From a virus (taxonomy: Duplodnaviria; Caudoviricetes): a stretch of DNA of 64,000 nucleotides. The stretch lies in the IMG/VR virus record IMGVR_UViG_3300008255_000136, positions 5,335 through 69,334 of that record. One strand, 5' to 3'. The notes beneath the pieces were generated by a model, which did not search any database, was not told the origin of the DNA, and saw only the letters and a program-made list of their open reading frames with translations. A program made the translations under genes and the position numbers. Positions 4,509 to 61,048 of the stretch are shown one piece after another; position 1 is the first letter of the stretch, and every line of letters starts with the position of its first letter.

Positions 4509-5447
4509 ATGAGAATATATTTTGATAATGTTTTTTTTGATTCTCAATCTGGACCGAACTCATTTGGAAACAGGCTTGCTAACCAGTTTCTAAAAATGGG
4601 ACATGAGATTGCAAAGGAAAATGAAAATTATGATATTTTTTTATCCTTTATTGAACAAAGAGTTCGTTCTGCCCTTAGGTCAAAAAAGGTCCTTAGACTA
4701 GATGGAATTTGGTTTAAGCCAGAAAATTTTGAACAAAACAACAGAACAATTAAGCAAGCTTATTTTGCTTTTGATCATGTTATTTTTCAAAGCAATTTTG
4801 ATAAACAAATGATTGAAACACATTTTGGTAAAAGGTCTGATTGTTCAGTTATTCATAATGGAATTGATTTATGCGTAATGGATGCGATTCCTCAAATAAG
4901 TCATAAAAATGAAAAAATATTTGTTTGTTCTGCTTCTTGGCATCCGCAAAAAAGATTAAAAGACAATATATTATTATTTTCTCAAATTAGAAAACAATTA
5001 AAAAAGAACAGAGAAGATGCGAGGCTTTATGTTCTTGGAAAGAACGCAGACTTTCAAAGTCTAAGCTCTGAAGATTTGGAGAATGTTTTTTATCTTGGTC
5101 ACCAAAGGCATGAAGCATGTTTGAAGATTTATGCAACTGCTGACTATTTTATCCATTTGGCTTGGCTGGATCACTGCCCAAATGTGGTGGTAGAAGCCCT
5201 AAGTCAAGGATGTCCAGTAATTTGCACAAGCAGCGGAGGAACTCACGAGATTGTAAAAGAAAATGGAATAATAATTCCCGAAACAAAAGATTACAATTTT
5301 GAACTTACTGATTATGACTCTCCTTACCCTATTGATTTTTCTAATTTTATATTGCCTGAAAAAAGACCTGAAGTTAATGCAGATTATCTTGATATCGAAA
5401 AAGTAGCCGAAGAATATATAAGGATTTTTAAAAATGAAACATATTGA
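4509..5447 (+). CDS. Glycosyltransferase, GT4-like (GT-B fold)
   Basis: SGP, RLDG, IFQS, VIHNG, HPQKR, DHCPNVVVEALSQGCPVI. Confidence 0.9.
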   Translation: MRIYFDNVFFDSQSGPNSFGNRLANQFLKMGHEIAKENENYDIFLSFIEQRVRSALRSKKVLRLDGIWFKPENFEQNNRTIKQAYFAFDHVIFQSNFDKQMIETHFGKRSDCSVIHNGIDLCVMDAIPQISHKNEKIFVCSASWHPQKRLKDNILLFSQIRKQLKKNREDARLYVLGKNADFQSLSSEDLENVFYLGHQRHEACLKIYATADYFIHLAWLDHCPNVVVEALSQGCPVICTSSGGTHEIVKENGIIIPETKDYNFELTDYDSPYPIDFSNFILPEKRPEVNADYLDIEKVAEEYIRIFKNETY

Positions 5448-6282: not shown

Positions 6283-7176
6283 GTGATTTCCATTTTAGAT
6301 ACAAAAGATCGATGCAACAATAAGTTATCGATTGTTAAAAATGCATATACTTGCAAAGATTCTAAATTTATAAATTGTCAAAACGCAGGAGATTCTTCAT
6401 GCGTTTTGACAATTTCATTTTCTGAGCTAAAAAATCATGTTGAATGTTCTTATCGTCATAAGCTTCAATATATTGATAAGATCAATATGTTTGAAGAAAA
6501 TGTAAATACAAATTTTGGAACGGCTTTGCATGAATCATGCGAACATTATCTTAAGTCAAGAGAAATGAAGTATGAGTTGGCTTTAGACTATATTGTTGAA
6601 GCATGGAAAAAATATGATCTGCCTGATTTAGGGCAGTGGCTCAAAGAGGCAAATGCGATTCTGGAGGCTGTGCCCAAATTTCTAGACGAAAGATTTCCAG
6701 GATGGAAGTACGTCTCAGCAGAAGAGAAAATCCATGAAAGAATCGAAGGAAAACACTCTCAAGAAGTTGCTTTCAAGGGATACATTGACGGAATCATTGA
6801 GCATGATGGAATTTTTTATATTTTAGACTGGAAAACAAGTTCTAAGGGTTGGAATAAATATAAGAAAGAAGATGAAACCCTAAAGATGCAGCTTGTTCTT
6901 TATGCCAAGTTTTGGGGACAAAAACATAATATTGAGGCTTCCAAAATTCGTGTTGGATTTGTTGTTTTGAATAGAGACCTTTCAAATCCTGAGAGAATAG
7001 AGTTTTTTACGTTTCCAATTGAAGAGAAGGCCACCAAGAATACTTTGAAAATATTGAATAACGCAATTTCTATGAAAAGAGATGGATTGTACTTTAAGCA
7101 ATGGAAATATAAAGTTCCAAACCAGCAAAGAAATTGTAGATTTTGTGATTATAATGAAACAAAATATTGCCCATAG
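6283..7176 (+). CDS. PD-(D/E)XK nuclease, Cas4/AddB-like, probable Fe-S cluster
   Basis: ISFSEL...ECSYR, GTALH, FKGYIDG, ILDWKTS, QL.LY, C-terminal CRFC-x7-C. Confidence 0.85.
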   Translation: MISILDTKDRCNNKLSIVKNAYTCKDSKFINCQNAGDSSCVLTISFSELKNHVECSYRHKLQYIDKINMFEENVNTNFGTALHESCEHYLKSREMKYELALDYIVEAWKKYDLPDLGQWLKEANAILEAVPKFLDERFPGWKYVSAEEKIHERIEGKHSQEVAFKGYIDGIIEHDGIFYILDWKTSSKGWNKYKKEDETLKMQLVLYAKFWGQKHNIEASKIRVGFVVLNRDLSNPERIEFFTFPIEEKATKNTLKILNNAISMKRDGLYFKQWKYKVPNQQRNCRFCDYNETKYCP

Positions 7177-7184
7177 TTATATGC

Positions 7185-8411
7185 ATGGGAAACTTTACAG
7201 ATGATCCAATTGATTTAGAAAAGTCTTTAGCAAGCGAGCCTGGCGGAAATGAGCTTATCAAAAAAAAGAAAAAGTCGGCTTATTTGTCTTGGAATGAGCT
7301 AATGGAATCTGTTATTTGCTGTCTTTTTGAATCAAAACAAGACAATATTGAACAGGACATAAATTTTCAATATATTGAAGATGATTCAGAAGAGCATGAT
7401 AAAGAAAGAGGGTATAATATTAGTCAAATTAACGCATTTATAGATGGGAATTTGGTTGGAGAATTAAAAATTGCTTACATTCCATTAGAAAAGTTTGAGG
7501 AAATATATAAATCAATTTGGCATTACTTGTATTTGTCGAAAGGATGGACATCTTTAAAAAAGATTATATATACTGATAAGTGGAAAGATCCTGAAATTTT
7601 ATGGGAACATATTTATCCTTATTTAAGAATGGGTATAGGTTCAAATCTTTCTTTAGAAGAAAAAATAGAAATTATTAAAGAAATACAAAACAATTCTATT
7701 TATAAAGATGATTTTCATAAATTTAAAAGACATTGGGTAAACAAACCAATGGTTGATTTTATTCAAGTCAACCCAAAATGGAGAAGAAAAGGAATAGGAA
7801 CTTCTCTTTATAGAGAAGGTGCAAGAATAATGGCTCAAAAAGGTCTAAAACTTTATGCTTCTGGGATTCAAAGTCCTGAAGCAAAGGCCGCTTGGAGTAA
7901 AATGCCAATAGAAACAAAGTCAGGAAGACGTTTCTTAAGTGACTTAAATGAAAGTGTATGCAAGACAATTTTAGAGTCTAGATTTTTTGATACAGAAGAT
8001 ATTGAAGAGAATCTTAAGTCAATAGAAGAACTAAAAGCCTTAATTCCTAAATTTGTAAAAGCTGCCCAAAAAGAGTATGATGAATGGATGTTAGATGATG
8101 ATGGTTTTCATTGGGAGTTGGGTTCAGGAGGAATTTGTCAAAATATTGCAGAACAATTGGCAGATGTACTCAATTCAAATGGAATAGAGGCAACTATTGC
8201 GTGTGCTCACCAAGGAGAGCAACATGTTTGGGCGGTGGCAAAAACCTCAGATGGGGTTTTTGAAATTGATATTGATCCATATCGATATGAGACTGGTGGT
8301 GGATATAATTGGAAAAAACTTCCAGATGTAGAATTTAGCGAAGATGATATAATCATAAATTTACTAGATTCTGATCCATCTTCTTTTGAAGATTATCTTG
8401 ACTCCATATAA
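7185..8411 (+). CDS. Fusion of a GNAT acetyltransferase and a transglutaminase/papain-like Cys-His-Asp domain; probable virion-packaged effector
   Basis: GNAT motif A QVNPKWRRKGIGTSLY and QSPEAKAAW; C-terminal GGIC...QHVW...IDID; ATG 7185 preferred over TTG 7167. Confidence 0.7.
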   Translation: MGNFTDDPIDLEKSLASEPGGNELIKKKKKSAYLSWNELMESVICCLFESKQDNIEQDINFQYIEDDSEEHDKERGYNISQINAFIDGNLVGELKIAYIPLEKFEEIYKSIWHYLYLSKGWTSLKKIIYTDKWKDPEILWEHIYPYLRMGIGSNLSLEEKIEIIKEIQNNSIYKDDFHKFKRHWVNKPMVDFIQVNPKWRRKGIGTSLYREGARIMAQKGLKLYASGIQSPEAKAAWSKMPIETKSGRRFLSDLNESVCKTILESRFFDTEDIEENLKSIEELKALIPKFVKAAQKEYDEWMLDDDGFHWELGSGGICQNIAEQLADVLNSNGIEATIACAHQGEQHVWAVAKTSDGVFEIDIDPYRYETGGGYNWKKLPDVEFSEDDIIINLLDSDPSSFEDYLDSI

Positions 8412-8481: not shown

Positions 8482-9759
8482 GTGCAGAAGAAAAAGATTT
8501 TATTTATATCCGATCACCCGTTATCAACATCCGGTGTAGGATGTCAGGCACGGTACTTGATTGAAGGATTGCTTAGAACTGGGAAATATCAATTTAGATG
8601 CCTAGGTGCTGCAATTAAGCATGGAGATTACAGAATTGTAAATGTTCCTCCAAATCCAAATGATCCAAATAGATGGAATGACGGCGATTGGCTAATTCGT
8701 CCGATTGATGGCTTTGGAGATAAGAACACAATGCGATTGCTTTTAGCGCAAGAAAAGCCGGACGCAGTGTTTTTGTTTACAGACCCCAGGTTTTTCATGC
8801 ATTATTTTGAAATAGAAGATGAAATTCATCAAATATGCCCAATGGTTTGGTGGCATGTATGGGATAATGATCCTTGGCCCGCATACAATAAAGCCATTTA
8901 TGACAGCATAGATTTGTGCAATTGTCACAGCTATAAAACTTATTCTTTGGTTTCAGAGCATTATCCTGAAATTACAAACTTCATTCCTCACGCAGTTCCT
9001 CCTGAAATATTTTACCCGATGAAAGAAGAGGAGATTTCTTTAGCAAAAGAAAACCTTCTTGGAGCTGAAAAAAAAGATCATTTTGTTGCTCTTTGGATTA
9101 ATAGAAATGCAAAAAGAAAAATGCCTGGTGACGTTATCGATTCTTGGCATATTTTCCTAAAGCAGCTTGAAGAAAAATATGGGCATAAAAATGCCACATT
9201 ATTGATGCATACAAATCCCTTGGATCAAGAAGGTCCAAATCTTTATAAAATTGTTGAACACTTTAATTTGGTTGATAATGTTGTTTTCTCTACAGATCGG
9301 ATAGGCTTTCCTCAAGTAAATATGTTACATAATATTTCTGATACTTATATTTCGATTTCGTCCAACGAAGGATTTGGACTGGGGACTCTTGAGTCGATGA
9401 TGACTGCAACTCCAATTATTGCACTTAAGACTGGTGGTATGACACGCCAGGTTGTAGACCATAGAGATGGAAGCCATAATGGAATTGCTCTCGATCCTGA
9501 AGTTAGGAATTTGGTTGGATCGCAGCTTGTTCCGTACATTTATGAAGATCATATTTCAAATCAAACATTTGCAAATGCCATCATGGAAATGTACGAATAC
9601 GGGCCAGAGAAAAGAAAAGAACTTGGCAAAAAAGCTCTTGATTATGCAAATTATGAATTCAATCTAAATGAAACGGTTGAAAAATGGGATAAAACTTTAT
9701 TTGAAACCATTGAAGGCTGGAAAGACAAAAGGAAACCATGGGAATGTCAGAAACTATAG
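8482..9759 (+). CDS. Glycosyltransferase, GT4-like (GT-B fold)
   Basis: ISDHPLSTSGVG, IPHAV, NRNAKRK, SNEGFGLGTLESMM. Confidence 0.9.
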   Translation: MQKKKILFISDHPLSTSGVGCQARYLIEGLLRTGKYQFRCLGAAIKHGDYRIVNVPPNPNDPNRWNDGDWLIRPIDGFGDKNTMRLLLAQEKPDAVFLFTDPRFFMHYFEIEDEIHQICPMVWWHVWDNDPWPAYNKAIYDSIDLCNCHSYKTYSLVSEHYPEITNFIPHAVPPEIFYPMKEEEISLAKENLLGAEKKDHFVALWINRNAKRKMPGDVIDSWHIFLKQLEEKYGHKNATLLMHTNPLDQEGPNLYKIVEHFNLVDNVVFSTDRIGFPQVNMLHNISDTYISISSNEGFGLGTLESMMTATPIIALKTGGMTRQVVDHRDGSHNGIALDPEVRNLVGSQLVPYIYEDHISNQTFANAIMEMYEYGPEKRKELGKKALDYANYEFNLNETVEKWDKTLFETIEGWKDKRKPWECQKL

Positions 9760-10136
9760 AAAAAATAAAAAATGCAAAAGAGTCTTGGTATTGGAGTCTA
9801 AAGCCTGGTTGTTTTACAGATAGTCTCACAGGCAAAGATCCTTATCCCGACATGGTGAAAAGCCCTTGGTCAAAAACAATAGAGGAGTGGAACGCTTCTC
9901 TTATTGAAGCATGTATATTCTTCGCATTTAGATTATTTGGAGAAGAAAAAGAAAACGTAGAACTAGAAATTCCAGATTCAATTTACGGGAAAATGACACC
10001 TTCAATTCTTCAAAAATGGCCAGGAAAAATAAAAAGAAATAATTCAATTCCATTCAATAAAGTTTTGCTTTCTTTTGAAGGAAAGTCTGGGGTTGTAAAT
10101 GTATTAAATATTAATGAAAAGGGAAATCTTGTATGA
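9738..10136 (+). CDS. Hypothetical protein
   Basis: 132-aa ORF overlapping both neighbouring GT genes; no motif recognised. Confidence 0.6.
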   Translation: MGMSETIEKIKNAKESWYWSLKPGCFTDSLTGKDPYPDMVKSPWSKTIEEWNASLIEACIFFAFRLFGEEKENVELEIPDSIYGKMTPSILQKWPGKIKRNNSIPFNKVLLSFEGKSGVVNVLNINEKGNLV

Positions 10137-11356
10137 AGAAAAAAGTATTATTAAGGGCTCCGCTTTTGACGATGAGCGGATATGGTGTTCATTCTCGTCA
10201 AATCTTTAGATGGTTAGAAAGTCGTTCTGATCAATATGATTTTTCTGTAAATACACTTCCGTGGGGAAATACAAGTTGGCTTATTGATTCAAATAAGCTA
10301 AATGGCCTTATCGGCCGAATAATGAACAAGAGTGGAAAGTCAAAAGATGGTTATGATATATCTATTCAAGTTCAGCTTCCTAATGAATGGGATCCAAGCT
10401 TGGCAAAATTTAATGTGGGAGTTACTGCTGCCGTAGAGACGGACAAGGCAAATCCATCATGGCTCAATAATGTCAATTCTATGGATATGATAATTGTCCC
10501 TTCTGAGCATTCAAAAAAATCTCTATTGAATGCTGGAAGTGTAAATAAAAGAATAGAAGTTGTACCTGAAGCCTTTATTGATGAAATAAAAGAAGAAGAA
10601 CTTGTAACATTGCCTGAATTTGGTACGAAATTTAATTTCTTGATTTTCGGACAAATTACAGGACAAAACGCAGAAGACGACAGAAAAAACACTTATAACA
10701 CCATTAAGTGGCTTTGCGAACTGTTTAAAAAAGATAAAGATGTCGGAATTGTTATCAAAACAAATTCTGCAAGAAACTGTCTTTTTGATCGAGAAAGAAC
10801 CAAGGATATATTGAACAATATCCTTAAAAATATTCGTGGAGAAAACAATCTTCCTCCTGTTTATTTTATCCATGGAGACATGAATGACAAAGAAGTAGCT
10901 TCTCTCTATCGCCATCCCCAAATAAAGGCTTTGGTGGCCCTTACAAAGGGCGAAGGGTTTGGTCTTCCGATTTTAGAGGCAGCGGCTTCTGGACTTCCTG
11001 TAATTGCAACAAATTGGTCTGGACATCTTGATTTTATGGAAAAAGGAAAGTTTTTAAAGGTTGATTATGACTTAAAAGAAATTCCAAAAACTAAAATTGA
11101 TAAAAGAAAGTGCCCAGTATGCCAAAATGGATGCACTGTTTGTTCGGGAACAGGCTTTACTCAAATATTTGTAGAAGGATCTAAGTGGGCCGAGCCAAAA
11201 GAAAAATCTGCAAAAAGTATAATAAAGAAATTTCGTGAGATGCCTGACACTCCAAAAGAATGGGCAGAAAAATTAGCAACTACAATTAGAGAAGAATATT
11301 CACAAGAAGCTATCCAAAATCATTATGATCTAGTATTCTCTGATATAGCTGTATGA
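10133..11356 (+). CDS. Glycosyltransferase, GT4-like, with a Cys4 insertion
   Basis: SGYGVHSR, IIVPSEHS, KGEGFGLPILEAAASGLPVIATNWSGH; CPVCQNGCTVCSGTG at 11111-11155. Confidence 0.9.
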   Translation: MKKKVLLRAPLLTMSGYGVHSRQIFRWLESRSDQYDFSVNTLPWGNTSWLIDSNKLNGLIGRIMNKSGKSKDGYDISIQVQLPNEWDPSLAKFNVGVTAAVETDKANPSWLNNVNSMDMIIVPSEHSKKSLLNAGSVNKRIEVVPEAFIDEIKEEELVTLPEFGTKFNFLIFGQITGQNAEDDRKNTYNTIKWLCELFKKDKDVGIVIKTNSARNCLFDRERTKDILNNILKNIRGENNLPPVYFIHGDMNDKEVASLYRHPQIKALVALTKGEGFGLPILEAAASGLPVIATNWSGHLDFMEKGKFLKVDYDLKEIPKTKIDKRKCPVCQNGCTVCSGTGFTQIFVEGSKWAEPKEKSAKSIIKKFREMPDTPKEWAEKLATTIREEYSQEAIQNHYDLVFSDIAV

Positions 11357-40172: not shown

Positions 40173-40973
40173 ATGGCAATAACAGAAAAATGGCTAAATG
40201 TTCTTCTTGAGGAAGATGAAAAAGACGGAAAAGATCCGATGGAGGACTATGCGCTATATATTGATGCTGGCCGACATAGTTCTGATTACATTCTTTATAA
40301 GCCAAAATACTATGCTCAAAGAATAAAAGAAGATATTGACAAATCTCTTAAGGATTTTAATAAAATTCCTTTTAAAGGTAATCAATTTAGTAAATTTAAA
40401 GATTTTTATGCTTTTTCAAATGTAAAAGACATTTTTAAAGATCCAAAAGGTGTTTATGGGTTTGTAAGCGTAAATAATGGCCGAATTATTGGACTTAGAG
40501 GTTCTTGCAATAGAGCAAATGAAATTCGTTCAATTGCAACACGAGAAGGTTTTGGACGACTTATGTTCATGATTGCTCTAGCAAAAGAATCTCCGATTAT
40601 GCCTAATAGAGAAGAAATTTCTACAAAGGCATATGATTACTGGAGTATCTTTAATAAAAATCCAATTATTAAAAAAGAGCCTTTTTCAAATGAAAAAAGA
40701 CTTGCAAAAAAAGACAATGATGACTGTAAAACATATGGAAATATTGTTCTTGATAAAAGCTATAAAAGCGAAAGCGACATAGCAATAGAGGCACAGCCGT
40801 TGTTGAATCGTCATAAAATTTTTTTGCATCAAATGAAAAATTACTTACAAAAAAATGGAGTAGATTTCATTTTGTCAAGAATTAAACAATATATTGCTGA
40901 TGCAGGATCTTACTTTTTTGATGAGCAAAGGGGCGAAGATGGCTGGTACGAAAGCTATGATGAAAATGATTAA
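40173..40973 (+). CDS. GNAT-like acetyltransferase; probable virion-packaged effector
   Basis: IRSIATREGFGRLMF (motif A-like) and PNREEISTKAYDYW; leader ITEKWLNVLLEE. Confidence 0.5.
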   Translation: MAITEKWLNVLLEEDEKDGKDPMEDYALYIDAGRHSSDYILYKPKYYAQRIKEDIDKSLKDFNKIPFKGNQFSKFKDFYAFSNVKDIFKDPKGVYGFVSVNNGRIIGLRGSCNRANEIRSIATREGFGRLMFMIALAKESPIMPNREEISTKAYDYWSIFNKNPIIKKEPFSNEKRLAKKDNDDCKTYGNIVLDKSYKSESDIAIEAQPLLNRHKIFLHQMKNYLQKNGVDFILSRIKQYIADAGSYFFDEQRGEDGWYESYDEND

Positions 40974-47819: not shown

Positions 47820-50800
47820 ATGGCCATTAACGTAAAGGCCCATCATGCAAAAGAAATATTAAGGTGCGGAAAAGATCCAATATATTTCATTAATAAATAT
47901 GTAAAGATTCAGCACCCTACAAAAGGAGCAATTCCTTTTGATACATTTGACTTTCAGGATGATTGTGTTGAAGAATTTATTAAGCATAGATTTACCATTG
48001 TTTTAAAGGCAAGGCAGCTTGGACTATCTACGGTCACAGCCGCTTATGCTTTATGGATGGTTTTATTTAGAGAAAATGCTAACGTTCTTGTTATTGCTAC
48101 AAAATTAAGCACAGCAAAAAACTTCATTGCGAAATGTAAATACATGTTAAAGATGTTGCCGCCATGGCTTATTCTTTGTGATATTTCGAGTGAAACTGTT
48201 CAAACCATTCAAACATCTCGTGGTTCTGTTTTAAAGGCTGTTCCAACATCTCCTGACGCTGGTCGTTCTGAGGCATTGTCTCTTTTGATTATTGATGAAG
48301 CTGCCTTCGTTCGTGACTTCGATGAGCTTTGGAAAGGCCTCTATCCAACTCTATCCTGCTTGACCGGAGACACATTGGTCTTGTCAGATAAAGGATTTAA
48401 AAGAATTGGGGATTATTTTGAAAATAAGAATATTGGAGATTATTTTGAATTAAATTCAAAGATTTGGGGAAAAAATGGGATTGAAGATATCTCTCATGGA
48501 TATGTTTCTCCAAAGTCAAAAGTTTTAGAAATCAGAACTCAAAGCGGCTCGACATTAAAGATCACTCCTAACCACCCTTTGTATTCATTGAAGGAAGGAA
48601 ATGAAAGGCCAAAAATGATCCCAGGAAAATATCTTTCTATTGGAGATCATCTAAGAACTTCATATGGAATGAATTCTTTTGGAGATGTCTGCATTGATGA
48701 TGACTTGGCATATATGGTTGGAGGATTTATTGCAGAAGGATGGATGACCTCAACCTCTCAAGAAAAAAATTATACAACATGGATTTCTAATACAGATGAT
48801 TCATTTAGAGATATTTTTATTAGAAATGGATTTTCTCCTGATAAATCAAACAATGAGAAATTGAGAATTTGTTCCGTTAATTTTTGTGACAAACTTAAGT
48901 CAATTGGAATTGAACCCAAAAGAAAATGTTATGAAAAAATAACTCCAAATGAAGTTTTTTCTTGGAATAAAATAGCAACTTCAAAATATCTTTCTGCATT
49001 GTTTGATGGAGATGGATCTGTTTCAGAAAGTGGAATCGTATTGAGTTCGACATCTGAGCAATTGTTGCAAGAAACAAAGATAATTCTTTCTAATTATGGG
49101 ATTTATGGAAACATCCATAAATCCACAGATTCCGAATCTAAGTTAAATTATGAACGTAAAACAGGAAGATTGTTGCCACAAGGTAAACCCGTTCAGTCTT
49201 TGCATGATTGTTGGTCAATAATAATACCAAGAAGTCAAATGAAACTTTTTTCTGAAGAGATTGGATTTAAAATTAAAAGAAAGCAACTTTTGCTTGAAAA
49301 ATATATTCAAGCATATAGCCAAGATTCTTCAAAAATATTTCAAATACCAAAATCAAATATTTATTTAAAAATAAAAGATATTGTAAAAGATTCAAATAAA
49401 AGTACTTATTGGTTTAGAAAGAATGGACTAAGACTAGATAAAATTCTTGATAAAAATATGGAAAGATATGTCAATCAAGAATTTTTAAGAAAATTAAGAG
49501 ATTTGATTGGTGAAAATTTGAAAGAAAAATATTCTTTATTTTTTGAAGAATATTTGTCTGATACTTTTAGGTGGGATAGAATTGTTTCAATATCAGAATC
49601 AGAAGATGAAGTTGTAACATATGACTTTACAGTTCCTGAAACTCATTCTTTTTTGCAAAATGGAATCCTTGGAAGCAATACAGGAGGGCGCGCAATTCTT
49701 TTGTCCTGTGTAACAGAAAATACATGGGTTTTTACTGACAAAGGGCCAACTCAAGTTAAAAACTTTATACAGCAAAAAAATAGTTTTGGCGGATATGAGA
49801 TAAGTGAATATTCTGTTTTAGGAAAGGATAAACTTAGAAATGGAACGCTATTCCATAACAATGGAAAAGTTGAGACAAAAAAAATAACGACTCAACATTC
49901 TTGGTTGGAAGGTTCTAATAATCATAAGGTTTGGGCTTGTGTTGATGGAAAATACAATTGGCATAGATTAGATCAATTAAAAGAAGGTGACTATATTGCT
50001 TATCAATATGGAATGAATTCTTGGGGTTTTAATGATGATATTTCTTGTTTTTCACATGTTCCATCGTCTAAAGAGAAAAATGTTCCAAATTTGGGAGAAA
50101 AAATAACAAAAGACCTGTCTTATATATTTGGAATGTATTTGGCCGAAGGTTCAAATTATAAAGTTTTAAATAATCAAAATGAACAAGTTGGAAATCATCT
50201 AACAATTACATGTGGAGACGATATTTCAAATATTTTTGAAAGCATTGAATTGTCTTCCAAGTCATATGACAATATGCATTATAATATTTCTTCCAAGTCT
50301 TTCGGACTTTTTCTGGAGTACGTTGGTTTTAATTTAGATCTAAAGGCAAAAGAAAAACATATACCAGACAGACTTTTGCAAATGAGCAAAGAAAACATAG
50401 CCTCCATGTTATCTGGTCTTTTTGATGGAGATGGGTATAGCAGAAGTGATCGTGGAACTATTGGAATTTCCTTATCTTCAAAAAGGCTAATAGAACAAAT
50501 AAGAATTCTTCTCAATAATTTTGGAATAATAACTGATTACTATGAGGGAACTTCTCTACCAACAGAAAAAGTTAAAGTTGAATCAAAATATTATAGGATT
50601 GAAATAAATGGAAGATATTCTAATATATTTTATGATGAAATTGGGTTTGGATTTGAAAGAAAGCAGAATAATAAAGAAAAATTAAAAGAATGTTATAACA
50701 TCTCTGCAAAAAATACAAAGGATATAATTCCAAATTCTTTGGGACTTTTGAATGAAATATATTCATATTCCTCAGAAAATTTAAATACGCTATATAAAAA

Positions 50801-52163
50801 ATATGGCCTATTTATGAATGGAATTCTAAATAAAAAAACAAAATATAAAACAGATGACATTAGCAGAGATGTTTGTTTGAAATTTTGGAATATAGTAAAA
50901 GATGATGTAATTAAAAAAGCACCAGAAAAAGTAGAAAATATTGATAATATAATATCTTCAAATATTAAATGGGACAGGATTAAAAATATAGAAGATGGAC
51001 TAGAAGAAACTTATGATTTCTCTCTGCCAGACATTGAAAAAGATTTTTGGTGCCATTCTGTAATTTACAATGGAATGCTTGGACATCAAACCCCAAATGG
51101 AACAGGCAATAAGTTTTTCGATATTTATGATAAGGCAGAAAAAAAAGAAAATGAATTCTATCCAATAAAGTTACCTTGGACCGTTCATCCTGAACGTGAT
51201 GAAAAATGGTTTAAAGAACAAACCGGAAACATGACAGTTAAGGAAATTGCACAGGAACACGAATGTGACTTTGCAGCTTCTGGTGATACATTTCTTGATC
51301 CTTCTATTATTGAAAAGCTTAGAAAAGCAGCCAGGGAGCCAATAAAAAGGGTTGGTGAGGATCGCAATATTTATATTTGGGAAGATTCAATTCCTGGCCA
51401 TAAATACATTCTTTCGGCAGACGTTGCAAGAGGTGATGGAAAAGATTATTCTACATTCCATATTATTGATGCTGAAATGGGAAAGGTTGTTGCAGAATAT
51501 CAAGGAAAGTTGCCACCTGATCGTTTTGCTGAGCTAATAAATGAATTTGGGCTTTTGTACAACAAGGCATTGGTTTGTCCTGAAAACAACAACGTGGGAT
51601 ATGCTGTTGTTCAAAGGCTTTGTTATTTGAACTATCCAAGAATCTATAATAACAAAGAAAAGTCTTTGGACATATGGAGTGCCATGGCTGGGAACGATGG
51701 AGATTTGCAAAATCCTTCTGGTGATCTTGGAATATTTACGTCTGGCGGCAAGAAAAATGTTCTTTTGACCAAAATGGAAGAAATGTTAAGAAATGATAAA
51801 GTTGAAATCTATTCAGATAGGCTTTGTCGAGAATTAAAAACATTTGTTTGGTTAGGAAACCATAAGGTTGGAGCAGACAAAAAGAAGAATGACGATCTTG
51901 TAATGAGTTTGGCTATTGGCCTCTGGCTTTTGGATACAGCGGATTTTGCTAGATTCTCAGAGGATCAAGGAAAAGCATTGCTTGATGCGATGTCTCAATC
52001 GTCTTCAAAGCTGGATGACATTATTGAAATGGGTTCAAAGAAAAAGGATGATTACAGTGTAATGTTGCCAGCAGCCGGAAATGCTAGCGGCTTTTCTAGA
52101 ATGACGGGAAAGACAAATAGGGTGCAAGTCCTAAACAAGAATTGGGATTGGCTAATGAAATAG
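47820..52163 (+). CDS. terL: Terminase large subunit (T4 gp17-like) precursor with two inteins; about 545 aa after splicing
   Basis: KARQLGLST Walker A, IIDEAAF Walker B, reconstructed PTLSTGGRAILLSTPNG, nuclease ADVARGDGKDYS, DDLVMSL. Confidence 0.95.
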   Translation: MAINVKAHHAKEILRCGKDPIYFINKYVKIQHPTKGAIPFDTFDFQDDCVEEFIKHRFTIVLKARQLGLSTVTAAYALWMVLFRENANVLVIATKLSTAKNFIAKCKYMLKMLPPWLILCDISSETVQTIQTSRGSVLKAVPTSPDAGRSEALSLLIIDEAAFVRDFDELWKGLYPTLSCLTGDTLVLSDKGFKRIGDYFENKNIGDYFELNSKIWGKNGIEDISHGYVSPKSKVLEIRTQSGSTLKITPNHPLYSLKEGNERPKMIPGKYLSIGDHLRTSYGMNSFGDVCIDDDLAYMVGGFIAEGWMTSTSQEKNYTTWISNTDDSFRDIFIRNGFSPDKSNNEKLRICSVNFCDKLKSIGIEPKRKCYEKITPNEVFSWNKIATSKYLSALFDGDGSVSESGIVLSSTSEQLLQETKIILSNYGIYGNIHKSTDSESKLNYERKTGRLLPQGKPVQSLHDCWSIIIPRSQMKLFSEEIGFKIKRKQLLLEKYIQAYSQDSSKIFQIPKSNIYLKIKDIVKDSNKSTYWFRKNGLRLDKILDKNMERYVNQEFLRKLRDLIGENLKEKYSLFFEEYLSDTFRWDRIVSISESEDEVVTYDFTVPETHSFLQNGILGSNTGGRAILLSCVTENTWVFTDKGPTQVKNFIQQKNSFGGYEISEYSVLGKDKLRNGTLFHNNGKVETKKITTQHSWLEGSNNHKVWACVDGKYNWHRLDQLKEGDYIAYQYGMNSWGFNDDISCFSHVPSSKEKNVPNLGEKITKDLSYIFGMYLAEGSNYKVLNNQNEQVGNHLTITCGDDISNIFESIELSSKSYDNMHYNISSKSFGLFLEYVGFNLDLKAKEKHIPDRLLQMSKENIASMLSGLFDGDGYSRSDRGTIGISLSSKRLIEQIRILLNNFGIITDYYEGTSLPTEKVKVESKYYRIEINGRYSNIFYDEIGFGFERKQNNKEKLKECYNISAKNTKDIIPNSLGLLNEIYSYSSENLNTLYKKYGLFMNGILNKKTKYKTDDISRDVCLKFWNIVKDDVIKKAPEKVENIDNIISSNIKWDRIKNIEDGLEETYDFSLPDIEKDFWCHSVIYNGMLGHQTPNGTGNKFFDIYDKAEKKENEFYPIKLPWTVHPERDEKWFKEQTGNMTVKEIAQEHECDFAASGDTFLDPSIIEKLRKAAREPIKRVGEDRNIYIWEDSIPGHKYILSADVARGDGKDYSTFHIIDAEMGKVVAEYQGKLPPDRFAELINEFGLLYNKALVCPENNNVGYAVVQRLCYLNYPRIYNNKEKSLDIWSAMAGNDGDLQNPSGDLGIFTSGGKKNVLLTKMEEMLRNDKVEIYSDRLCRELKTFVWLGNHKVGADKKKNDDLVMSLAIGLWLLDTADFARFSEDQGKALLDAMSQSSSKLDDIIEMGSKKKDDYSVMLPAAGNASGFSRMTGKTNRVQVLNKNWDWLMK
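48357..49679 (+). mobile_element. Intein TerL-1 with LAGLIDADG endonuclease, 441 aa
   Basis: Starts CLTGDT; block B TPNH; GGFIAEG and SALFDGDG; ends YDFTVPETHSFLQNGILGSN, then +1 Thr. Confidence 0.95.
49707..51089 (+). mobile_element. Intein TerL-2 with LAGLIDADG endonuclease, 461 aa, C-terminal Gln
   Basis: Starts CVTENT; SNNH; GMYLAEG and SGLFDGDG; ends YDFSLP...YNGMLGHQ, then +1 Thr. Confidence 0.93.
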
Positions 52164-53508: not shown

Positions 53509-56500
53509 ATGGCAAAAAGACAAAATTTATTCGCAAGACTAACAAGACTATTTAAAGCAGGCCCAATTGTAAAAAAACAAGTAAAGGGGTTTGATAGTGC
53601 CTCCGTCAAATCTTCCGCTCTGGACGTGTTTAGAAAAAGTACAGCAACAGTCTATGGAAATAGTTTAAATGCATATGGACAATATGATCGACTCTGCGTG
53701 GACTCTCGTACTAAAATAGCGATTCCTGGACCTGAAAGGTACATTGAAATTCAGGATTTGGGCAAAAAATATCCAAATGGAGAAAAATTTATTGTTTATG
53801 CATACGATCACGATGAAATGTGCATAAAGCCAGCTTGGGCTCATCATCCAAGATGTTCAGGCAATAAGGAAACTGTAAAAGTAACATTTGATGACGGAAC
53901 ATTCTTGATTTGCACTCCCGATCATCCATGTCTTATGAGAGATGGAAAATACAAGAATGCCGAGGACTTAAATGCGGGAACTTCAATGATGCCTTTTTAC
54001 AGAAGGGACTTCAAAGGAAAATCCAATAAAGATGGAAAAAAATTCGTTGTATCGGTCGAACCATTTGGCAAGCAAGAAGTTTGGGACTTGACTGTTGATG
54101 GGCATGAAAATTTTGCGACAGACACGATAGTTGTGCATAACTCTCGATATTCGGACTTCTGTTTGCGTGGAGATACTTTAGTCTATACAACTAAAGGAGT
54201 TTTTACAATAAAAGAATTGGCTGAAAAAAATGCCAATGATATAATTCATGTTTATTCGTACGATCAGGTGAATAATAAAATGGTCATAGCGCCAGCCCAT
54301 TCTCCAAGAATTACTCACAAAGGAGAAAAGCAAGATTTAATAAAAGTTAATTTTGATACAGGCGGAAGTGTTACTACAACGCCAAATCATAAATTTATGT
54401 TAAGGGATGGTTCTCCTTGTGAGGCAAAAGACCTAAAGGCAGACAATGCCCTCATGCCATTCAATGTGAGAGACTTGGCTGGTCATGGGTATAAATGGAT
54501 TTATACTATTAATAAAAATGATAAATCTGGAGGCTGGACACCTGAGCATGTTTTAGTTGCAGAATATTTTAATAGAAAATTAAAGCCCAACGAAATTGTT
54601 CATCATAAAGATTTTGATAGAGGAAATAACTTAATTGAAAATTTGGAAATCATGGATAGGTACGAGCATAATAGGTACCATGCTCAATTAAATAATAAAA
54701 ATAAATTTGGAAAACCGAATGAGAAACATTCTCAATGGATGAAAGAAAATAATACTGCAAAAAGAAACGATATAACATTTGAAAAAATACTGGAAGTCGC
54801 AACAGAAACTGACTTTACAATGAGCAAGGTAAAGGAAATTCTAAAAGTTGATCAAAATGTTATCAAGAGAAGACTAAGAGAGGTAGGATTTGAAAATTGG
54901 TTAGATTTTAAATCTAAGAAAGATTACATACAGCAATCAATTATTCATGAATCAATTGTTGAAGAAACAAAATCACCAGAAATTGAAGAAATATTAGAAC
55001 ATGGAAAAGATTGTGAAAATATTTATAAATTATGTCAAAAATTAAGTTGTTCACCTAATGCTGTTAGAAGAAGGCTAAATTCTTGTGGATATGGAACTTG
55101 GTCAGATTTTAAAGAAAAAAATGGCCATGAAATCGTAAAAGGAGTTGGAAGAACATCACTTATTGATGATTCAATTTCTTATCAAGATATTTGTAATTCA
55201 TATAAGCAAGGTATGACGTATGCAGAATTGGCAAAGGCGGCAAATACAACTCATAATAAAGTTATTTCAAGAATTAAAAAAGAAGGATTTAAATCTTATC
55301 ATGAATGGACTGAAGCCTATAGTAACCACAAAGTATCATCCATCGAACATCTAGAAGAAAAAGATTTTGTCTACAATATAACAGTTCCAGAATATCATAA
55401 TTTGGCAGTAGGATGCTATAATAAAAATTATCCAAAAGATGGCCAAGTACTTGATTTTACTATGGTTTTTCAAAGTGAAATGGAATATTGTTTACATGGG
55501 GATACAAAAATTGCAATTCCAAATGGGTATAAAACAATTAAAGAGTTGTCTGAAGAGTATGGAACTGATAAAGAATTTATTGTTTATGCTTACGATCACA
55601 ATATTGGAGGACTGACTCCTGCATTAGCAAAGCAAGCAAGGAAAACAAGATTTGATCATGCCTGGAAGGTTGTTTTTGACAATGGTCAAGAAATTATAGG
55701 CACTGCAAATCATCGATTAATGAAAAGAGATGGTACTTTTTGTAAAATTGAAGATCTAAAACCGGGAACTTCAATGATGCCATTTTATAGGAAAGATTTT
55801 TATAGCGAAAATAAAGATGAAAATTCTGATGGTTATCGTTGGATTTATACAATAAACGACGGATGGAAAACAGAACATCAATTTATAGCAGAATGGATAA
55901 GTGATAGAAAAATTCAAAAAGGAGAATGTGTTCATCATATAAATTATAAAAAATGGGATAATAGACCTGAAAATTTAAGGATTATGACATTATCAGAGCA
56001 TACAATTTTGCATAACAATTCTGATAAATGGTCAGAAGAAAATTCGGAATGGATAGAAAAATTCAAAAAAAATCATTCTGCATGGATGAAAAAAAATAAT
56101 CCTGCAAAAAGATCAGATATAACTTTTGGAAAAATTCTTGAATTATGTGAAAGCATTGGTTTTAATCTTTATAAAATTTGCGATGCTCTTGACACAGATC
56201 CTAATGCAATTAAAAGAAGATTGAGAGAAAATGGCTTTCAGGATTTTGTTACATTTTGTAAAGCATATAATGAAAATTGGAAAAGTGATTCCTGGAATAA
56301 TAAAGGAGAAAATAATCCTAGATTTAAAAATGAAATAACTTTTCAGTCAATATGCAATGTCTTTGAAAAGGCTAAAACATTGAATGAAATTAAAAAAGAA
56401 CTTAATTGTTCTCATGTTTTGATAACTAAAAGATTGAAAGATAATGGATTTTCTAATTTTACAGATTTTTCAAAAAATTATTCAAATCACAAAATTTCCT

Positions 56501-58422
56501 CTATTGAATATTATGGAAAAATAGATCTATATGATTTGACTGTTGATGGATATAAGAACTTTGCAACAGATACGATCATTTCTCACAATACACCAGAAAT
56601 TGCTAGTGCTGTTGACATTTACGCTGACGAGACGGTCGCTAAAGACGAGAAGGATCGTTCGCTTCATGTGTATTCAGAGAATCCAAAGATTAAGAGGCTT
56701 CTTGAAGAATTATTTTATGACACATTGAATTTTGAATTTTCTGGTCGTTCTTGGGTTCGTAACTTATGTAAATATGGGGATTTCTTCCTTTTAAATGACG
56801 TTTCTCCGAAGTATGGGGTTATCAATGCGCACCCTATTCCCGTCAATGAAATTGAAAGAGAAGAGGGTTTTGACCCTGAAAATCCTTTTGCTGTTAGGTT
56901 TAGATGGGTAACAGAAGGAAATCAGGTTCTTGAAAACTGGCAGGTTACACACTTTAGGCTTCTGGGAAATGATACGTTTCTTCCTTATGGCTCTAGTGTT
57001 TTGGAGAGTGCTAGAAGAATTTGGAGACAACTTGTCATGGCTGAGGATGCCATGCTTGTATATCGAATCATTCGTTCGCCTGAAAGACGAGTTTTCTATA
57101 TTGATGTTGCGAATGCTCCACCTAATGACATTCCAAATATTATTGAAAATGCAAGAACAACCTTGAAGTCGCAGGAGGTTATTGACAAAGATGCTGGTCG
57201 TGTAGATTTGCGATACAACCCATGGGCAGTTGACATTGATTATTTTATTCCTGTTCGTGGACAAGAGGGAGGAACGAAGGTTGATACACTTCCTGGAGGT
57301 GCCAACACAACAGCGATTGACGACGTTGAATACATTCAGCGCAAGCTTTTTGCTGCTCTAAAGGTTCCAAAGGCATATTTGGGATTTGATGAGTCTTTGG
57401 GTGGAAAAGCAAACTTGGCCGCTGAAGATGTTCGTTTCGCAAGAACAATTCAGCAGATTCAGCAAGTTGTTATTTCTGAATTGAATAAAATAGCAGCAAT
57501 TCATTTGGCTGCCCATGGTTATGATGGAGAAGATCTAATAAACTTTAGATTGCAATTAAGCAATCCTTCTACGATGGCTCAGCAACAGAAACTTGAGCTT
57601 CTTAGAAGTAGATTTGAAATTGCAGGAACAAGGCCGGAAGGCCTTCTTTCTGACAAGTATCTTTACAAAGAGGTATTTGGAATGACGGATGATTCAATCT
57701 CCATAATGGAAGAGGATCAAATTAAGGAACTAATAAGAAAGGCCCAGATGGAGCAAATGGGTGCTGCTGCTGCCGAAGGTGGCGGAGGTGGTGGCCTCGG
57801 TGGTGGAATGGGCGGAGGCGGTGGCCTCGGCGGAATTGAAGATCTTGGAGGCGGAGACGAAGGAGGCGAAGAGGGTGGAGAGCCACCGCCAGAAGGAGGA
57901 GAAGATCTTGGAGGCGGAGATGATTTATTCGCCGAAGAAGAATTTGGTTCTGAAAGACTTATTTCTGACGATGAAGATGAAATTATCGAATTTGGATTAG
58001 ACGAAGGCGATGACGAATATAAGCCTGTAAATCAGCAAAGTCAGATATCGAGATATCGTCATAACAATTTGAGACCAAGTAGAAGAAAGATGAAAGGTTC
58101 AAAAGGAATGACTCCGACAAATCCTGGGGACGCCTGGAACCATAAAGATCCTCATTTTCATGATGTTTCATTGAAGAGAGCTTGGAGTGCGGGAACTTCA
58201 GTAAATAAAGATGGTTCTTTTAAACTAACCGATGCTATTCAAAGACATATGGAAATGATTGAAGATTCAGAAATTAAACGAACAAGATTGTCATCAGAAA
58301 CAAAACACACTATAGATTCCCTTTCAAGGAAAATACCTATAAAGAGTAACACTTTAACAGACGGTGTTGCTGAGAAGATTTCAAGTCTAATAATTGAGTC
58401 CGATGAAGAGGATAATGAATGA
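53509..58422 (+). CDS. Portal vertex protein (T4 gp20-like) precursor with three inteins; about 683 aa after splicing
   Basis: Reconstructed DRL-SRYSDF-SEMEY-TPEIASAVDIYADE; RNLCKYGD, EDAMLVYRIIRSPERRVFYIDV, DYFIPVRG, LKVP. Confidence 0.95.
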   Translation: MAKRQNLFARLTRLFKAGPIVKKQVKGFDSASVKSSALDVFRKSTATVYGNSLNAYGQYDRLCVDSRTKIAIPGPERYIEIQDLGKKYPNGEKFIVYAYDHDEMCIKPAWAHHPRCSGNKETVKVTFDDGTFLICTPDHPCLMRDGKYKNAEDLNAGTSMMPFYRRDFKGKSNKDGKKFVVSVEPFGKQEVWDLTVDGHENFATDTIVVHNSRYSDFCLRGDTLVYTTKGVFTIKELAEKNANDIIHVYSYDQVNNKMVIAPAHSPRITHKGEKQDLIKVNFDTGGSVTTTPNHKFMLRDGSPCEAKDLKADNALMPFNVRDLAGHGYKWIYTINKNDKSGGWTPEHVLVAEYFNRKLKPNEIVHHKDFDRGNNLIENLEIMDRYEHNRYHAQLNNKNKFGKPNEKHSQWMKENNTAKRNDITFEKILEVATETDFTMSKVKEILKVDQNVIKRRLREVGFENWLDFKSKKDYIQQSIIHESIVEETKSPEIEEILEHGKDCENIYKLCQKLSCSPNAVRRRLNSCGYGTWSDFKEKNGHEIVKGVGRTSLIDDSISYQDICNSYKQGMTYAELAKAANTTHNKVISRIKKEGFKSYHEWTEAYSNHKVSSIEHLEEKDFVYNITVPEYHNLAVGCYNKNYPKDGQVLDFTMVFQSEMEYCLHGDTKIAIPNGYKTIKELSEEYGTDKEFIVYAYDHNIGGLTPALAKQARKTRFDHAWKVVFDNGQEIIGTANHRLMKRDGTFCKIEDLKPGTSMMPFYRKDFYSENKDENSDGYRWIYTINDGWKTEHQFIAEWISDRKIQKGECVHHINYKKWDNRPENLRIMTLSEHTILHNNSDKWSEENSEWIEKFKKNHSAWMKKNNPAKRSDITFGKILELCESIGFNLYKICDALDTDPNAIKRRLRENGFQDFVTFCKAYNENWKSDSWNNKGENNPRFKNEITFQSICNVFEKAKTLNEIKKELNCSHVLITKRLKDNGFSNFTDFSKNYSNHKISSIEYYGKIDLYDLTVDGYKNFATDTIISHNTPEIASAVDIYADETVAKDEKDRSLHVYSENPKIKRLLEELFYDTLNFEFSGRSWVRNLCKYGDFFLLNDVSPKYGVINAHPIPVNEIEREEGFDPENPFAVRFRWVTEGNQVLENWQVTHFRLLGNDTFLPYGSSVLESARRIWRQLVMAEDAMLVYRIIRSPERRVFYIDVANAPPNDIPNIIENARTTLKSQEVIDKDAGRVDLRYNPWAVDIDYFIPVRGQEGGTKVDTLPGGANTTAIDDVEYIQRKLFAALKVPKAYLGFDESLGGKANLAAEDVRFARTIQQIQQVVISELNKIAAIHLAAHGYDGEDLINFRLQLSNPSTMAQQQKLELLRSRFEIAGTRPEGLLSDKYLYKEVFGMTDDSISIMEEDQIKELIRKAQMEQMGAAAAEGGGGGGLGGGMGGGGGLGGIEDLGGGDEGGEEGGEPPPEGGEDLGGGDDLFAEEEFGSERLISDDEDEIIEFGLDEGDDEYKPVNQQSQISRYRHNNLRPSRRKMKGSKGMTPTNPGDAWNHKDPHFHDVSLKRAWSAGTSVNKDGSFKLTDAIQRHMEMIEDSEIKRTRLSSETKHTIDSLSRKIPIKSNTLTDGVAEKISSLIIESDEEDNE
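53695..54141 (+). mobile_element. Portal intein 1, mini-intein with no endonuclease, 149 aa
   Basis: Starts CVDSRT; TPDH; ends WDLTVDGHENFATDTIVVHN, then +1 Ser. Confidence 0.95.
54160..55473 (+). mobile_element. Portal intein 2 with HNH endonuclease, 438 aa, ends Phe-Gln
   Basis: Starts CLRGDT; TPNH; VHHKDFDRGNNLIENL; YNITVPEYHNLAVG...TMVFQ, then +1 Ser. Confidence 0.9.
55489..56589 (+). mobile_element. Portal intein 3 with HNH endonuclease, 367 aa
   Basis: Starts CLHGDT; TANH; VHHINYKKWDNRPENL; ends YDLTVDGYKNFATDTIISHN, then +1 Thr. Confidence 0.95.
57763..57930 (+). repeat. Gly/Glu low-complexity, GC-rich repeats in the portal C-terminal tail
   Basis: gaagatcttggaggcggaga at 57838 and 57901; ggcggagg.ggtggcctcgg at 57781 and 57811. 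Confidence 0.9.
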
Positions 58423-59264
58423 CAAGACACAATAAAAAGAGAAATACAGGGTTACTCTACGAATTTCTTGTCCGAACGATTTCTGATGCAATCATTGAAG
58501 GCAATGAAAAAAGGAGAGGCACTGCCTTGTCCATCATTAGAAAGCACTTTGTGGCAGGTTCGGAACTACACAAGGAATTTCGATTATTTCACTCTTTAGC
58601 AGCGACAACTGTAAAGAGTCCATCGGTGGCCGATACCATACTTGAAGCAGCCAAACAAGCATCGGGAATGTGTAATATCAACAAACTTAACCATGAAAAA
58701 TCTTTGCTCATAAGAAGCATTAATCATGGCCTTAATGATGAAAAGTTTTATGATAGAAAAATTCCCGAATATAAAACCTATGCAACTATTCAAACTCTTT
58801 TGAATGAATGGAGAGAAGGTCAATATAATAACATTGTTGAACAAGCACAATTTGAAGAACAATTGAAAGAATGGCTTTTAAAAGACAAGGCTGTTGCTAA
58901 AATAAATGAGCAATCTTCTTATTCTGGTGATCCATTGGTTGAAAAACTGATGATCAAAAAAATCAATGAAAGATATGGTGAAAGCCTAACAGAAGAGCAG
59001 TCAAATATAATTCGTACTTATATTTTTGCTAAAGATGAAAAGGCCAAAGAGAAACTGAATGAAGATTTAGATTCTATAAAGTCAAAAGCTCTTAAAAATA
59101 TAGATACATATATTGGAGAAAATGCTGGGAAGGATAAATATCTTGACGAGAAATTGAAAAAAGCAAAAAGCCTAATTCTGAAAGAAAGCATAGACTTAAT
59201 TGATGACGAAAAGGTTGAAAGGTTTCTTGATATTTCTAAATTAAATCAGGAGCTTAGGTGCTAA
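58419..59264 (+). CDS. Probable prohead assembly/core protein
   Basis: HNKKRNTGLLYEFL N-terminus; helical; lies between portal and protease. Confidence 0.65.
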   Translation: MTRHNKKRNTGLLYEFLVRTISDAIIEGNEKRRGTALSIIRKHFVAGSELHKEFRLFHSLAATTVKSPSVADTILEAAKQASGMCNINKLNHEKSLLIRSINHGLNDEKFYDRKIPEYKTYATIQTLLNEWREGQYNNIVEQAQFEEQLKEWLLKDKAVAKINEQSSYSGDPLVEKLMIKKINERYGESLTEEQSNIIRTYIFAKDEKAKEKLNEDLDSIKSKALKNIDTYIGENAGKDKYLDEKLKKAKSLILKESIDLIDDEKVERFLDISKLNQELRC

Positions 59265-61019: not shown

Positions 61020-61048
61020 TGTAAGGCATTTTGCTAAGGAGATTTAAT

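Follow-up and report, generated by a model that had tools for sequence, protein, structure and literature searches.

An acetyltransferase fused to a transglutaminase-like Cys-His-Asp domain in a T4-superfamily phage, and its possible origin from leader-tagged cargo genes

The subject of this report is an open reading frame (ORF) at 7185-8411 of a 64,000-nucleotide stretch of phage DNA (Duplodnaviria; Caudoviricetes; IMG/VR record IMGVR_UViG_3300008255_000136, positions 5,335 to 69,334), which we call the window and whose numbering is used for the ORF and its surroundings. The ORF encodes P0001, a protein in which a GNAT acetyltransferase is followed by a C-terminal domain with a conserved Cys-His-Asp triad (the C-domain), each of the two being preceded by a leader-like peptide that ends in a hydrophobic-x-Glu motif. 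The features on which the argument turns are the following, a slash marking a candidate cleavage site and P0002 being the closest relative of P0001.

6283-7176, plus strand: PD-(D/E)XK nuclease gene, upstream of the ORF; gene order kept in the syntenic relative; its stop lies 8 nt before the ORF
7185-8411, plus strand: the whole ORF, encoding P0001, 408 residues, a fusion of a GNAT and a TGc-like domain; ATG at 7185, stop at 8409-8411
7185-7331, plus strand: N-terminal extension and candidate propeptide, residues 1-49, poorly ordered, with a poly-Lys run at residues 26-30
7299-7334, plus strand: leader 1, residues 39-50, a helix with LME41 and LFE49/S50
7353-7919, plus strand: GNAT acetyltransferase core, residues ~57-245, divergent, with a long helical insert; coenzyme A motif RRKGIG at 7782-7799
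7935-7943, plus strand: fusion junction; homology to the stand-alone GNAT P0002 stops just past SGRRF (residues 246-250)
7944-7979, plus strand: leader 2, residues 254-265, with LNE256 and ILE264/S265, followed by an acidic spacer at 7989-8024
7986-8402, plus strand: TGc-like domain of an unannotated family, residues ~268-406, so called from AlphaFold2, VIA, Atlas and weak Transglut_core matches among relatives
8136-8138, plus strand: Cys318, candidate nucleophile, invariant, at the opening of a helix
8223-8225, plus strand: His347, invariant, where a beta-strand begins
8268-8270, plus strand: Asp362, closing the strand that follows, 15 residues past the His, and kept in 90% or more of relatives
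8286-8318, plus strand: family signature Y-E-x-G-G-G-Y-x-W-K-K, in which Tyr368, Glu369, Gly371, Trp376 and Lys378 are invariant

A first-pass annotation, made by a model from the letters alone, had already located both leaders and a Cys-His-Asp arrangement, and all of its coordinates are exact: the GGIC motif ends in Cys318 (8136), His347 lies at 8223, and the two aspartates on offer, Asp362 and Asp364, lie at 8268 and 8274. The start codon of the ORF is kept in P0002. Three contigs carry an identical P0001 protein, the longest of them 139,890 bp, and the DNA occurs in aquifer and groundwater metagenomes, no RNA dataset being listed for the stretch; a DNA-level search of phages gave no match.

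The N-terminal half is a GNAT, as had been called from the letters. Pfam recognition of this half is limited to GNAT motif A, where Acetyltransf_1 matches residues 186-225, including RRKGIG, at E=3.8e-5 (24.4 bits, the cut-off being 20.7), and among 22 relatives of the family Arg201 is invariant and Gly203 nearly so. An AlphaFold2 (AF2) model built with these 22 relatives has a predicted local distance difference test score (pLDDT) above 90 over the core (residues ~57-240) and of 47-63 over residues 1-55. When this model was compared with the PDB by Foldseek, the top ~45 matches were all GNATs, with probabilities up to 0.99, and the matches include RimI, AAC(6'), GCN5, Nat and AcrVA5; because of the large insert, all of them have E>1e-3. 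With 25 members in the representative set, the family is one of its own, made up of proteins of ~220-250 residues, and the N-terminal extension is common only to P0001 and its closest relatives P0002, P0003 and P0005.

The C-domain family has no match in Pfam, PHROGs or PDB sequences by profile search, and it was not found in a cultured-phage database of 50,697 deposited phage genomes, where P0001 gave only two matches, both from megaphage and both to the GNAT half. Its members agree closely on the candidate catalytic residues. Among 33 stand-alone relatives Cys318 and His347 do not vary and Asp362 is kept in at least 90%, and the triad is likewise invariant or at least 90% conserved in two sets of multidomain relatives, 48 and 43 in number; Asp364, the other candidate, is not conserved. 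The first helix also has an invariant Gln and an invariant Trp, and a minimal core of ~130 residues carries two motifs of the family's own, AAQ-x-YD-x-W and YE-x-GGGY-x-WKK. An AF2 model of residues 268-408, built with 32 stand-alone relatives, reaches pLDDT 90 and a predicted template modelling score of 0.85, and places the triad on a helix (51-64 in domain numbering) and on two strands (81-87 and 90-96), a hairpin topology from which it may be supposed that Cys, His and Asp lie next to one another in space.

What fold this might be is best judged from the set of structural matches as a whole. By VIA the best match of the C-domain is arylamine N-acetyltransferase (NAT; 1e2t, Z 6.8, 101 aligned residues, root-mean-square deviation 3.9), followed by 9crn, 7tvz, 4fgo, 4xz7 and 2zk9, with Z from 6.8 to 4 across NAT, TglA, protein 4.2, LapG, transglutaminase and protein-glutaminase. 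Factor XIII, TG2, SseI, PMT-C3 and vasohibin also appear in the VIA and the weak Foldseek lists, and about 25 of the top 35 VIA rows belong to one superfamily, the transglutaminase-like/papain-like one. Because every Z lies below 8, the level under which the tool advises caution, the argument for the fold rests on the consistency of these matches and on no single score. Foldseek found no match to the C-domain model at E<=1e-3 in either the PDB or BFVD. Atlas's own model of P0001 compares with Transglut_core clusters at template modelling scores of 0.50-0.58, and a weak Pfam Transglut_core match is seen in six of 33 C-domain relatives (best E 3.3e-4); P0001 itself has no match to Pfam Transglut_core (PF01841). 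We file the C-domain, on the strength of its predicted structure, as putative fold-level kin of the TGc superfamily and not as a member of PF01841, and its chemistry may be that of a peptidase, a deamidase, a transglutaminase or a Cys-dependent acyl transferase. The AlphaFold and Foldseek check that the first pass had proposed for both domains has thus been run, giving a GNAT fold for one half and, for the other, a confident model with weak TGc-superfamily matches; the Cys-His-Asp domain it had proposed survives, with a conserved triad and a predicted transglutaminase/papain-like fold.

Comparison with relatives indicates that the two enzyme modules were formerly independent and have recently been fused in P0001. 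An exhaustive, profile-free search with P0001 at E<=1e-3 returned 1285 relatives, each of which matches either residues ~57-245 or residues ~268-406; at E<=1e-10 the matches still comprise over 860 cluster representatives, the majority of those listed aligning over the C-domain. The closest of all, P0002, is a stand-alone GNAT of 253 residues, 75% identical to P0001, and its locus (L002) is syntenic with the window, with a methyltransferase-like gene, the nuclease and the GNAT followed by an unrelated gene. The P0002 protein ends four residues past SGRRF, and DNA similarity to the window stops there too. A syntenic relative whose GNAT stands alone and stops right at the junction leads us to take P0001 to be a fusion. 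The C-domain, for its part, is found alone in many phages (~130-190 residues) and also within proteins of up to 3449 residues, where its partners include ART-PolyVal, ADPrib_exo_Tox, NUDIX, Zeta/AAA_33, MuF, PcfJ, ParB, SprT-like and several different GNAT families. The earlier suggestion that two independent modules had been joined is therefore borne out from both sides.

Two further observations concern fusions of this kind. In P0013, P0039, P0086, P0087, P0148 and P0037, other GNAT families are independently fused to the same Cys-His-Asp domain, which may point to a functional connection between the two chemistries. P0003, a 46%-identical GNAT relative of 276 residues on a 1295-bp ENA contig, has a leader-like tail of ~25 residues beyond SGRRF; the tail opens with the same Asn-Glu-Ser as the window junction, and may represent a second fusion or a frameshifted one.

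Do the stand-alone members of these families carry anything resembling a packaging signal? A template for a capsid targeting sequence (CTS) was taken from T4 IPIII and fixed before counting: a Glu at positions 7-12, at least two hydrophobic residues among the three preceding it, with a further one at -5 to -7. This template fits 27 of 78 stand-alone C-domain proteins (35%) versus 17 of 148 neighbouring ORFs from the same viral loci (11%; Fisher p=7e-5), so that a search for stand-alone homologues with the leader, another of the checks initially proposed, does find CTS-like N-termini to be enriched. Many of the control ORFs that fit carry the leader of the adjacent C-domain gene. Elsewhere, the template fits three of 52 window ORFs and five of 18 members of the GNAT family.

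Leaders are shared, moreover, between neighbours that have little else in common. Scoring residues 2-11 across 53 non-redundant loci, with a score of at least 25 counted as similar, we find N-terminal similarity to be ~18-fold commoner within a locus than between loci; leader-sharing pairs occur in 11 of the 53 loci, and in 31 of 36 such pairs the bodies of the proteins are unrelated. The leaders in these arrays, which lie on uncultivated large-phage contigs, are phage-specific, ~10-12 residues long, and end in hydrophobic-x-Glu. The arrays are, by locus and position:

L060, 2334-7900: five neighbouring genes, plus the C-domain gene if an internal Met is its true start
L015, 5030-11568: three genes pass the stringent score threshold, with weaker variants besides
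L011, 4248-11265: as in L015, three genes pass the stringent threshold and weaker variants accompany them
L064, 6427-10070: the same pattern
L016, 1251-6010: the same pattern
L077, 4210-11203: adjacent genes with unrelated bodies and a phage-specific N-terminal leader
L095, 1754-12348: adjacent genes with unrelated bodies and a phage-specific N-terminal leader

Some arrays sit among structural genes. In L042 the array, which includes a 331-residue C-domain protein, has the gene for the major head protein on one side and that for the head-tail adaptor on the other, and a gp21-type protease gene is present on the same contig. In the related locus L104 a GNAT-family gene is found in a similar array, which adjoins homologues of the L042 head-tail adaptor gene and of the two genes after it. 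We also note L090:15346-20354, to the right of the window, where the interval from the Gp23 capsid gene to the gp13 adaptor gene is filled by some nine small accessory genes, among them a Mom-like GNAT fused to NUMOD3; L042-type phages have their leader array in the same slot.

One might suppose that a hydrophobic-hydrophobic-Glu-Ser motif precedes every C-domain, wherever it occurs. This is not the case, the motif being present before 8% of internal copies versus 5% of control windows. Because internal copies mostly lack it, the leader motif is a feature of N-termini; and because they so rarely have it, leader 2 of P0001 looks like the retained N-terminus of a once-separate gene. To judge from these sequences, it is well supported that both module families comprise accessory genes of T4-like and large phages that are tagged with leaders, and both families appear to behave as mobile 'cargo' modules that occur alone, in polyvalent proteins and in leader arrays.

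A protease that might act on such leaders is encoded in the same phage:

59266-59883, plus strand: prohead protease of the T4 gp21/Peptidase_S77 type, the proposed processing enzyme (phrog_207, E=5.8e-44; Pfam PF03420)

The assignment of a T4 gp21-type protease to the gene at 59266 had been made from the letters alone and is upheld by both family matches; 2478 phage records match it. The phage, which belongs to the T4 superfamily as an outlying member, also has genes for a portal of T4 type and a capsid protein of Gp23 type. When its Gp23 homologue is aligned to T4 gp23, the T4 site (after LTE65) falls in a stretch with LLE50/S and LRE59/S, and the predicted capsid maturation site, LLE/S, resembles the leader ends LFE/S and ILE/S. 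Both leader ends, LFE49/S and ILE264/S, lie in regions of low model confidence: around the junction pLDDT is ~52 at residues 251-259 and ~71 at residues 268-277, these being the edges of two models with residues 260-267 outside both. As far as models can tell, the low confidence of the N-terminal 55 residues and of the junction would be compatible with access by a protease. In T4, CTS propeptides are 10-20 residues long and Alt is cut at N-terminal and internal C-terminal sites (PMC9026906, PMC5694885). Because the leader ends match the capsid site and lie in low-confidence regions, and because Alt has an internal T4 cut, it is plausible that P0001 is cleaved after Glu49 and Glu264, which would release a GNAT of ~24 kDa and a Cys-His-Asp enzyme of ~16 kDa.

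Other genes of the head module deserve mention. Three ORFs around the protease (58419-59264, 60278-61000 and 61031-61399) are without a family match and start with amphipathic peptides rich in hydrophobic-x-Glu motifs, which makes them candidate core or scaffold substrates. The portal gene (53509-58422) encodes 1637 residues with two intein-like inserts that carry HNH endonuclease domains, and the large terminase gene (47820-52163) encodes 1447 residues with two LAGLIDADG inteins.

What, then, does P0001 do? The most likely reading, in our analysis of these sequences, and one to which we give even confidence, is that it is a fused two-module phage effector that is packaged, cut apart and injected. 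Under this scenario P0001 would be expressed along with the structural genes and taken into the prohead, where the gp21-type protease (59266) would trim it after Glu49 (LFE/S) and probably also part the two enzymes after Glu264 (ILE/S); the products would then be ejected with the DNA and modify host proteins. Packaging, the cleavage sites, injection and the targets are what we infer here; the domains, their conserved residues, the fusion and the protease family can be read directly from P0001 and its phage, as can the leader arrays from its relatives. A more specific version, which we put forward tentatively, is that P0001 is a polyvalent protein caught at its origin: two leader-tagged cargo genes became fused and the second leader was kept as an internal protease site. 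If so, resolution of the polyprotein would take place inside the capsid and fall to the prohead protease, with no embedded metallopeptidase involved.

A number of observations weigh against the packaged and processed effector, and the leader-like peptides of P0001 themselves provide the first of them. Leader 1 lies within a helix (residues 36-50 in the AF2 model) and is the positional equivalent of the N-terminal helix in stand-alone GNAT relatives; in P0001 and these relatives alike, 9-10 residues separate its hydrophobic-hydrophobic-Glu end from the first strand. Leader 2 resembles the N-terminal leaders of stand-alone C-domain genes. The first-pass annotation went further and regarded the two as the same 12-residue leader. 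That claim fails: with six identities in 12 positions and a BLOSUM62 score of 21, the similarity is at chance level, since a pair scoring at least 21 occurs in 200 of 200 shuffles of P0001 (~16 such pairs are expected), and the best-scoring pair of 12-mers in the real protein, at 28, lies elsewhere. The protein holds 10 [LI]xE motifs versus 7.6 +/- 2.4 expected. If the leaders were a recurrent tag in this phage, we would expect further copies, and a position-specific scoring matrix made from both found none in the window above the shuffle null (top non-self scores 35, 31 and 30; null mean 35.5). The looser spacing pattern proposed at the first pass has three hits in the window proteome versus 0.35 in shuffles, two of which served to define it. 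The sole independent hit in the window is ORF 40173 (266 residues), whose N-terminal peptide (40173-40214) fits the double [IL]-x-Glu spacing at residue 3; considered as a second GNAT, this ORF was rejected, having no Pfam match, no similarity to P0001 and no PHROG match either.

Position is a further difficulty. The leaders sit at residues 39-50 and 254-265, neither of them at the N-terminus of P0001, and a T4 CTS acts as the first 10 residues; P0001 has no propeptide of 10-20 residues at its extreme N-terminus ending in [LI]-x-Glu, and a longer propeptide of 49 residues, unlike the T4 form, is a possibility. Nor does the window contain an array of genes with a common N-terminal leader. The ORF lies outside the head module, right behind the nuclease gene, in a glycosyltransferase/methyltransferase cluster, flanked by GT4 genes at 4509-5447, 8482-9759 and 10133-11356 and with methyltransferase-like genes nearby. 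In favour of packaging, by contrast, a baseplate module follows ~6 kb downstream on the same strand, much as T4 alt adjoins baseplate genes. It had been called a late-type gene, and this we cannot sustain: there is no T4 late promoter motif near the ORF (TATAAATA has nine occurrences in place of the six expected, none of them upstream of it), a scan for sigma-70-like promoters gave 17 sites versus 14.9 expected, which is chance level, and the ORF starts 8 nt past the nuclease gene. At 7170-7189, across the nuclease stop and the start of the ORF, a scan for terminator-like structures found an inverted repeat with a 6-bp stem (minus strand), which could couple or limit translation of the ORF.

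The wider families raise similar doubts. A gp21-type protease is found in nine of the 39 viral records with a C-domain (8/34 plus 1/5), most of them fragments, and in none of the three that are at least 90% complete, so that a restriction of the C-domain family to phages with this protease is not supported. A structural-module setting for the family as a whole was abandoned, the neighbours of C-domain genes across 52 loci being a mixture of structural genes (head-tail adaptor, major head, tail tube) and non-structural ones (homing endonucleases, ligases, a helicase). Fusions of GNAT and C-domain recur without leader-like junctions, which suggests that the two enzymes may function joined, as an undivided protein, and the Z scores by which the C-domain is assigned to a fold are, as noted above, all below the caution level.

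The main rival draws on several of these points. It holds that P0001 is an intact, bifunctional enzyme of the cytoplasm that is never packaged, is produced in the infected cell, acts on host or phage proteins as a single chain whose two domains cooperate, serves host takeover or anti-defence, and has ordinary amphipathic linker helices where we see leaders; we consider this a realistic possibility, if a less than even one. It accounts for the recurrence of fusions with different GNAT families at junctions of no leader-like character, for leaders whose similarity is at chance and which are not N-terminal, and for a gene that follows a nuclease gene in a non-structural cluster with no late-promoter evidence; phiKMV Rac, moreover, is a GNAT that works inside the cell (PMC7824862). 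What it leaves unexplained is that stand-alone members of both families occur in leader-sharing arrays in or next to structural modules, that CTS-like motifs are enriched at their N-termini, and that both leader ends of P0001 match the predicted capsid maturation site. All the packaging evidence applies equally to a protein that is packaged and not split, with the N-terminal propeptide removed, the internal ILE/S unused and the two-domain protein ejected whole. Polyvalent proteins are often delivered uncleaved (PMC5512222), and here, too, the recurrent GNAT and C-domain fusions fit. We think this unlikely, considering that gp21 needs little beyond hydrophobic-x-Glu and cuts Alt at an internal C-terminal site, and that the junction is a region of low model confidence.

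The genomic neighbourhood suggests yet another scenario, namely that P0001 belongs to a glycosylation pathway. The GNAT would then N-acetylate an amino sugar or a glycan built by the neighbouring glycosyltransferases, and the glycan or glycoprotein would be the substrate of the Cys-His-Asp domain. The flanking GT4 and methyltransferase-like genes speak for it, and GNATs commonly acetylate amino sugars. If the association were a functional one, we might expect it to persist in the syntenic relative, where the next gene is unrelated to the window glycosyltransferase, as judged by a DNA alignment and not by a search against family libraries. Elsewhere the family is tied to polyvalent domains and leader arrays (its neighbours there were not searched with Pfam for glycosyltransferases), and the nearest GNAT folds include the protein acetyltransferases RimI, GCN5 and Nat. 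On balance, we regard a part in glycosylation as improbable.

Should the packaged and processed effector prove correct, the consequences would reach beyond this gene. A concrete intermediate would connect T4 capsid targeting sequences with polyvalent injected proteins, and a simple sequence rule would be at hand for seeking injected effectors in uncultivated phages: unrelated neighbours that share a short leader ending in hydrophobic-x-Glu. Leader arrays would then mark a widespread, largely unannotated system of injected effectors in uncultivated T4-superfamily and jumbo phages, with the Cys-His-Asp family among its commonest cargoes. This large unannotated family is in any event repeatedly joined to acetyltransferases and ADP-ribosyltransferases, and is a candidate host-protein modifier or anti-defence enzyme. 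Even if our reading is wrong, the gene remains a clean case of recent fusion between two mobile phage modules.

How does P0001 compare with systems already known? The internal-protein loci of T4 encode diverse proteins with a common 10-residue CTS that is removed by gp21 after Glu (PMC3012670, PMC9026906, PMC5694885). As with T4 IPI-III and Alt, the phage has an S77 protease, a portal and a Gp23 capsid protein, and among relatives of both modules short N-terminal leaders recur in arrays whose genes are otherwise unrelated; like Alt, P0001 is a predicted protein-modifying enzyme whose gene lies near baseplate genes, T4 alt adjoining such genes itself. Unlike the T4 proteins, P0001 has its leader-like peptides at residues 39-50 and 254-265 and holds two enzymes in one chain, and general searches, which did not include a direct comparison, turned up no similarity between it and the T4 internal proteins or Alt.

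Polyvalent proteins (Iyer et al. 2017) combine two to fifteen effector-type domains from a common repertoire that includes GNATs (PMC5512222). P0001 resembles them in having two effector domains, of which the GNAT belongs to that repertoire and the C-domain co-occurs with the hallmark domains ART-PolyVal, Zeta, MuF, PcfJ, ParB and NUDIX; it differs in having only two domains and 408 residues, and in having no zincin metallopeptidase, the prohead protease being proposed in its place. The first-pass statement that phage polyvalent proteins combine GNAT and papain-like domains is half right: GNATs are listed, whereas the paper (PMC5512222) names no papain-like or transglutaminase-like domain, even though the C-domain is found here alongside polyvalent domains.

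With TGc enzymes (NAT, transglutaminases, protein-glutaminase, LapG, SseI and the PMT C3 deamidase) the C-domain shares a Cys at the N-terminus of a helix and a His and an Asp on the next two strands, 15 residues apart in P0001; it differs in falling below the sequence thresholds of Pfam, PHROG and PDB searches and in having invariant motifs of its own. The GNAT half finds its functional parallels in phiKMV Rac and in AcrVA5, which acetylates Cas12a: both are phage-encoded GNATs that modify a host protein, and AcrVA5 is among the fold matches of this half. Neither has a detectable sequence relationship to P0001, whose GNAT, with its large helical insert, forms part of a separate family. Rac offers a further likeness in that acetylation is tied to proteolysis of the target, RNA polymerase alpha being first acetylated and then cleaved (PMC7824862). 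P0001 is thus best described as combining known kinds, T4 CTS cargo and polyvalent proteins, with a transglutaminase-like family that was previously unannotated, and the arrays in its relatives place the T4 internal-protein/CTS design well outside the T-even phages.

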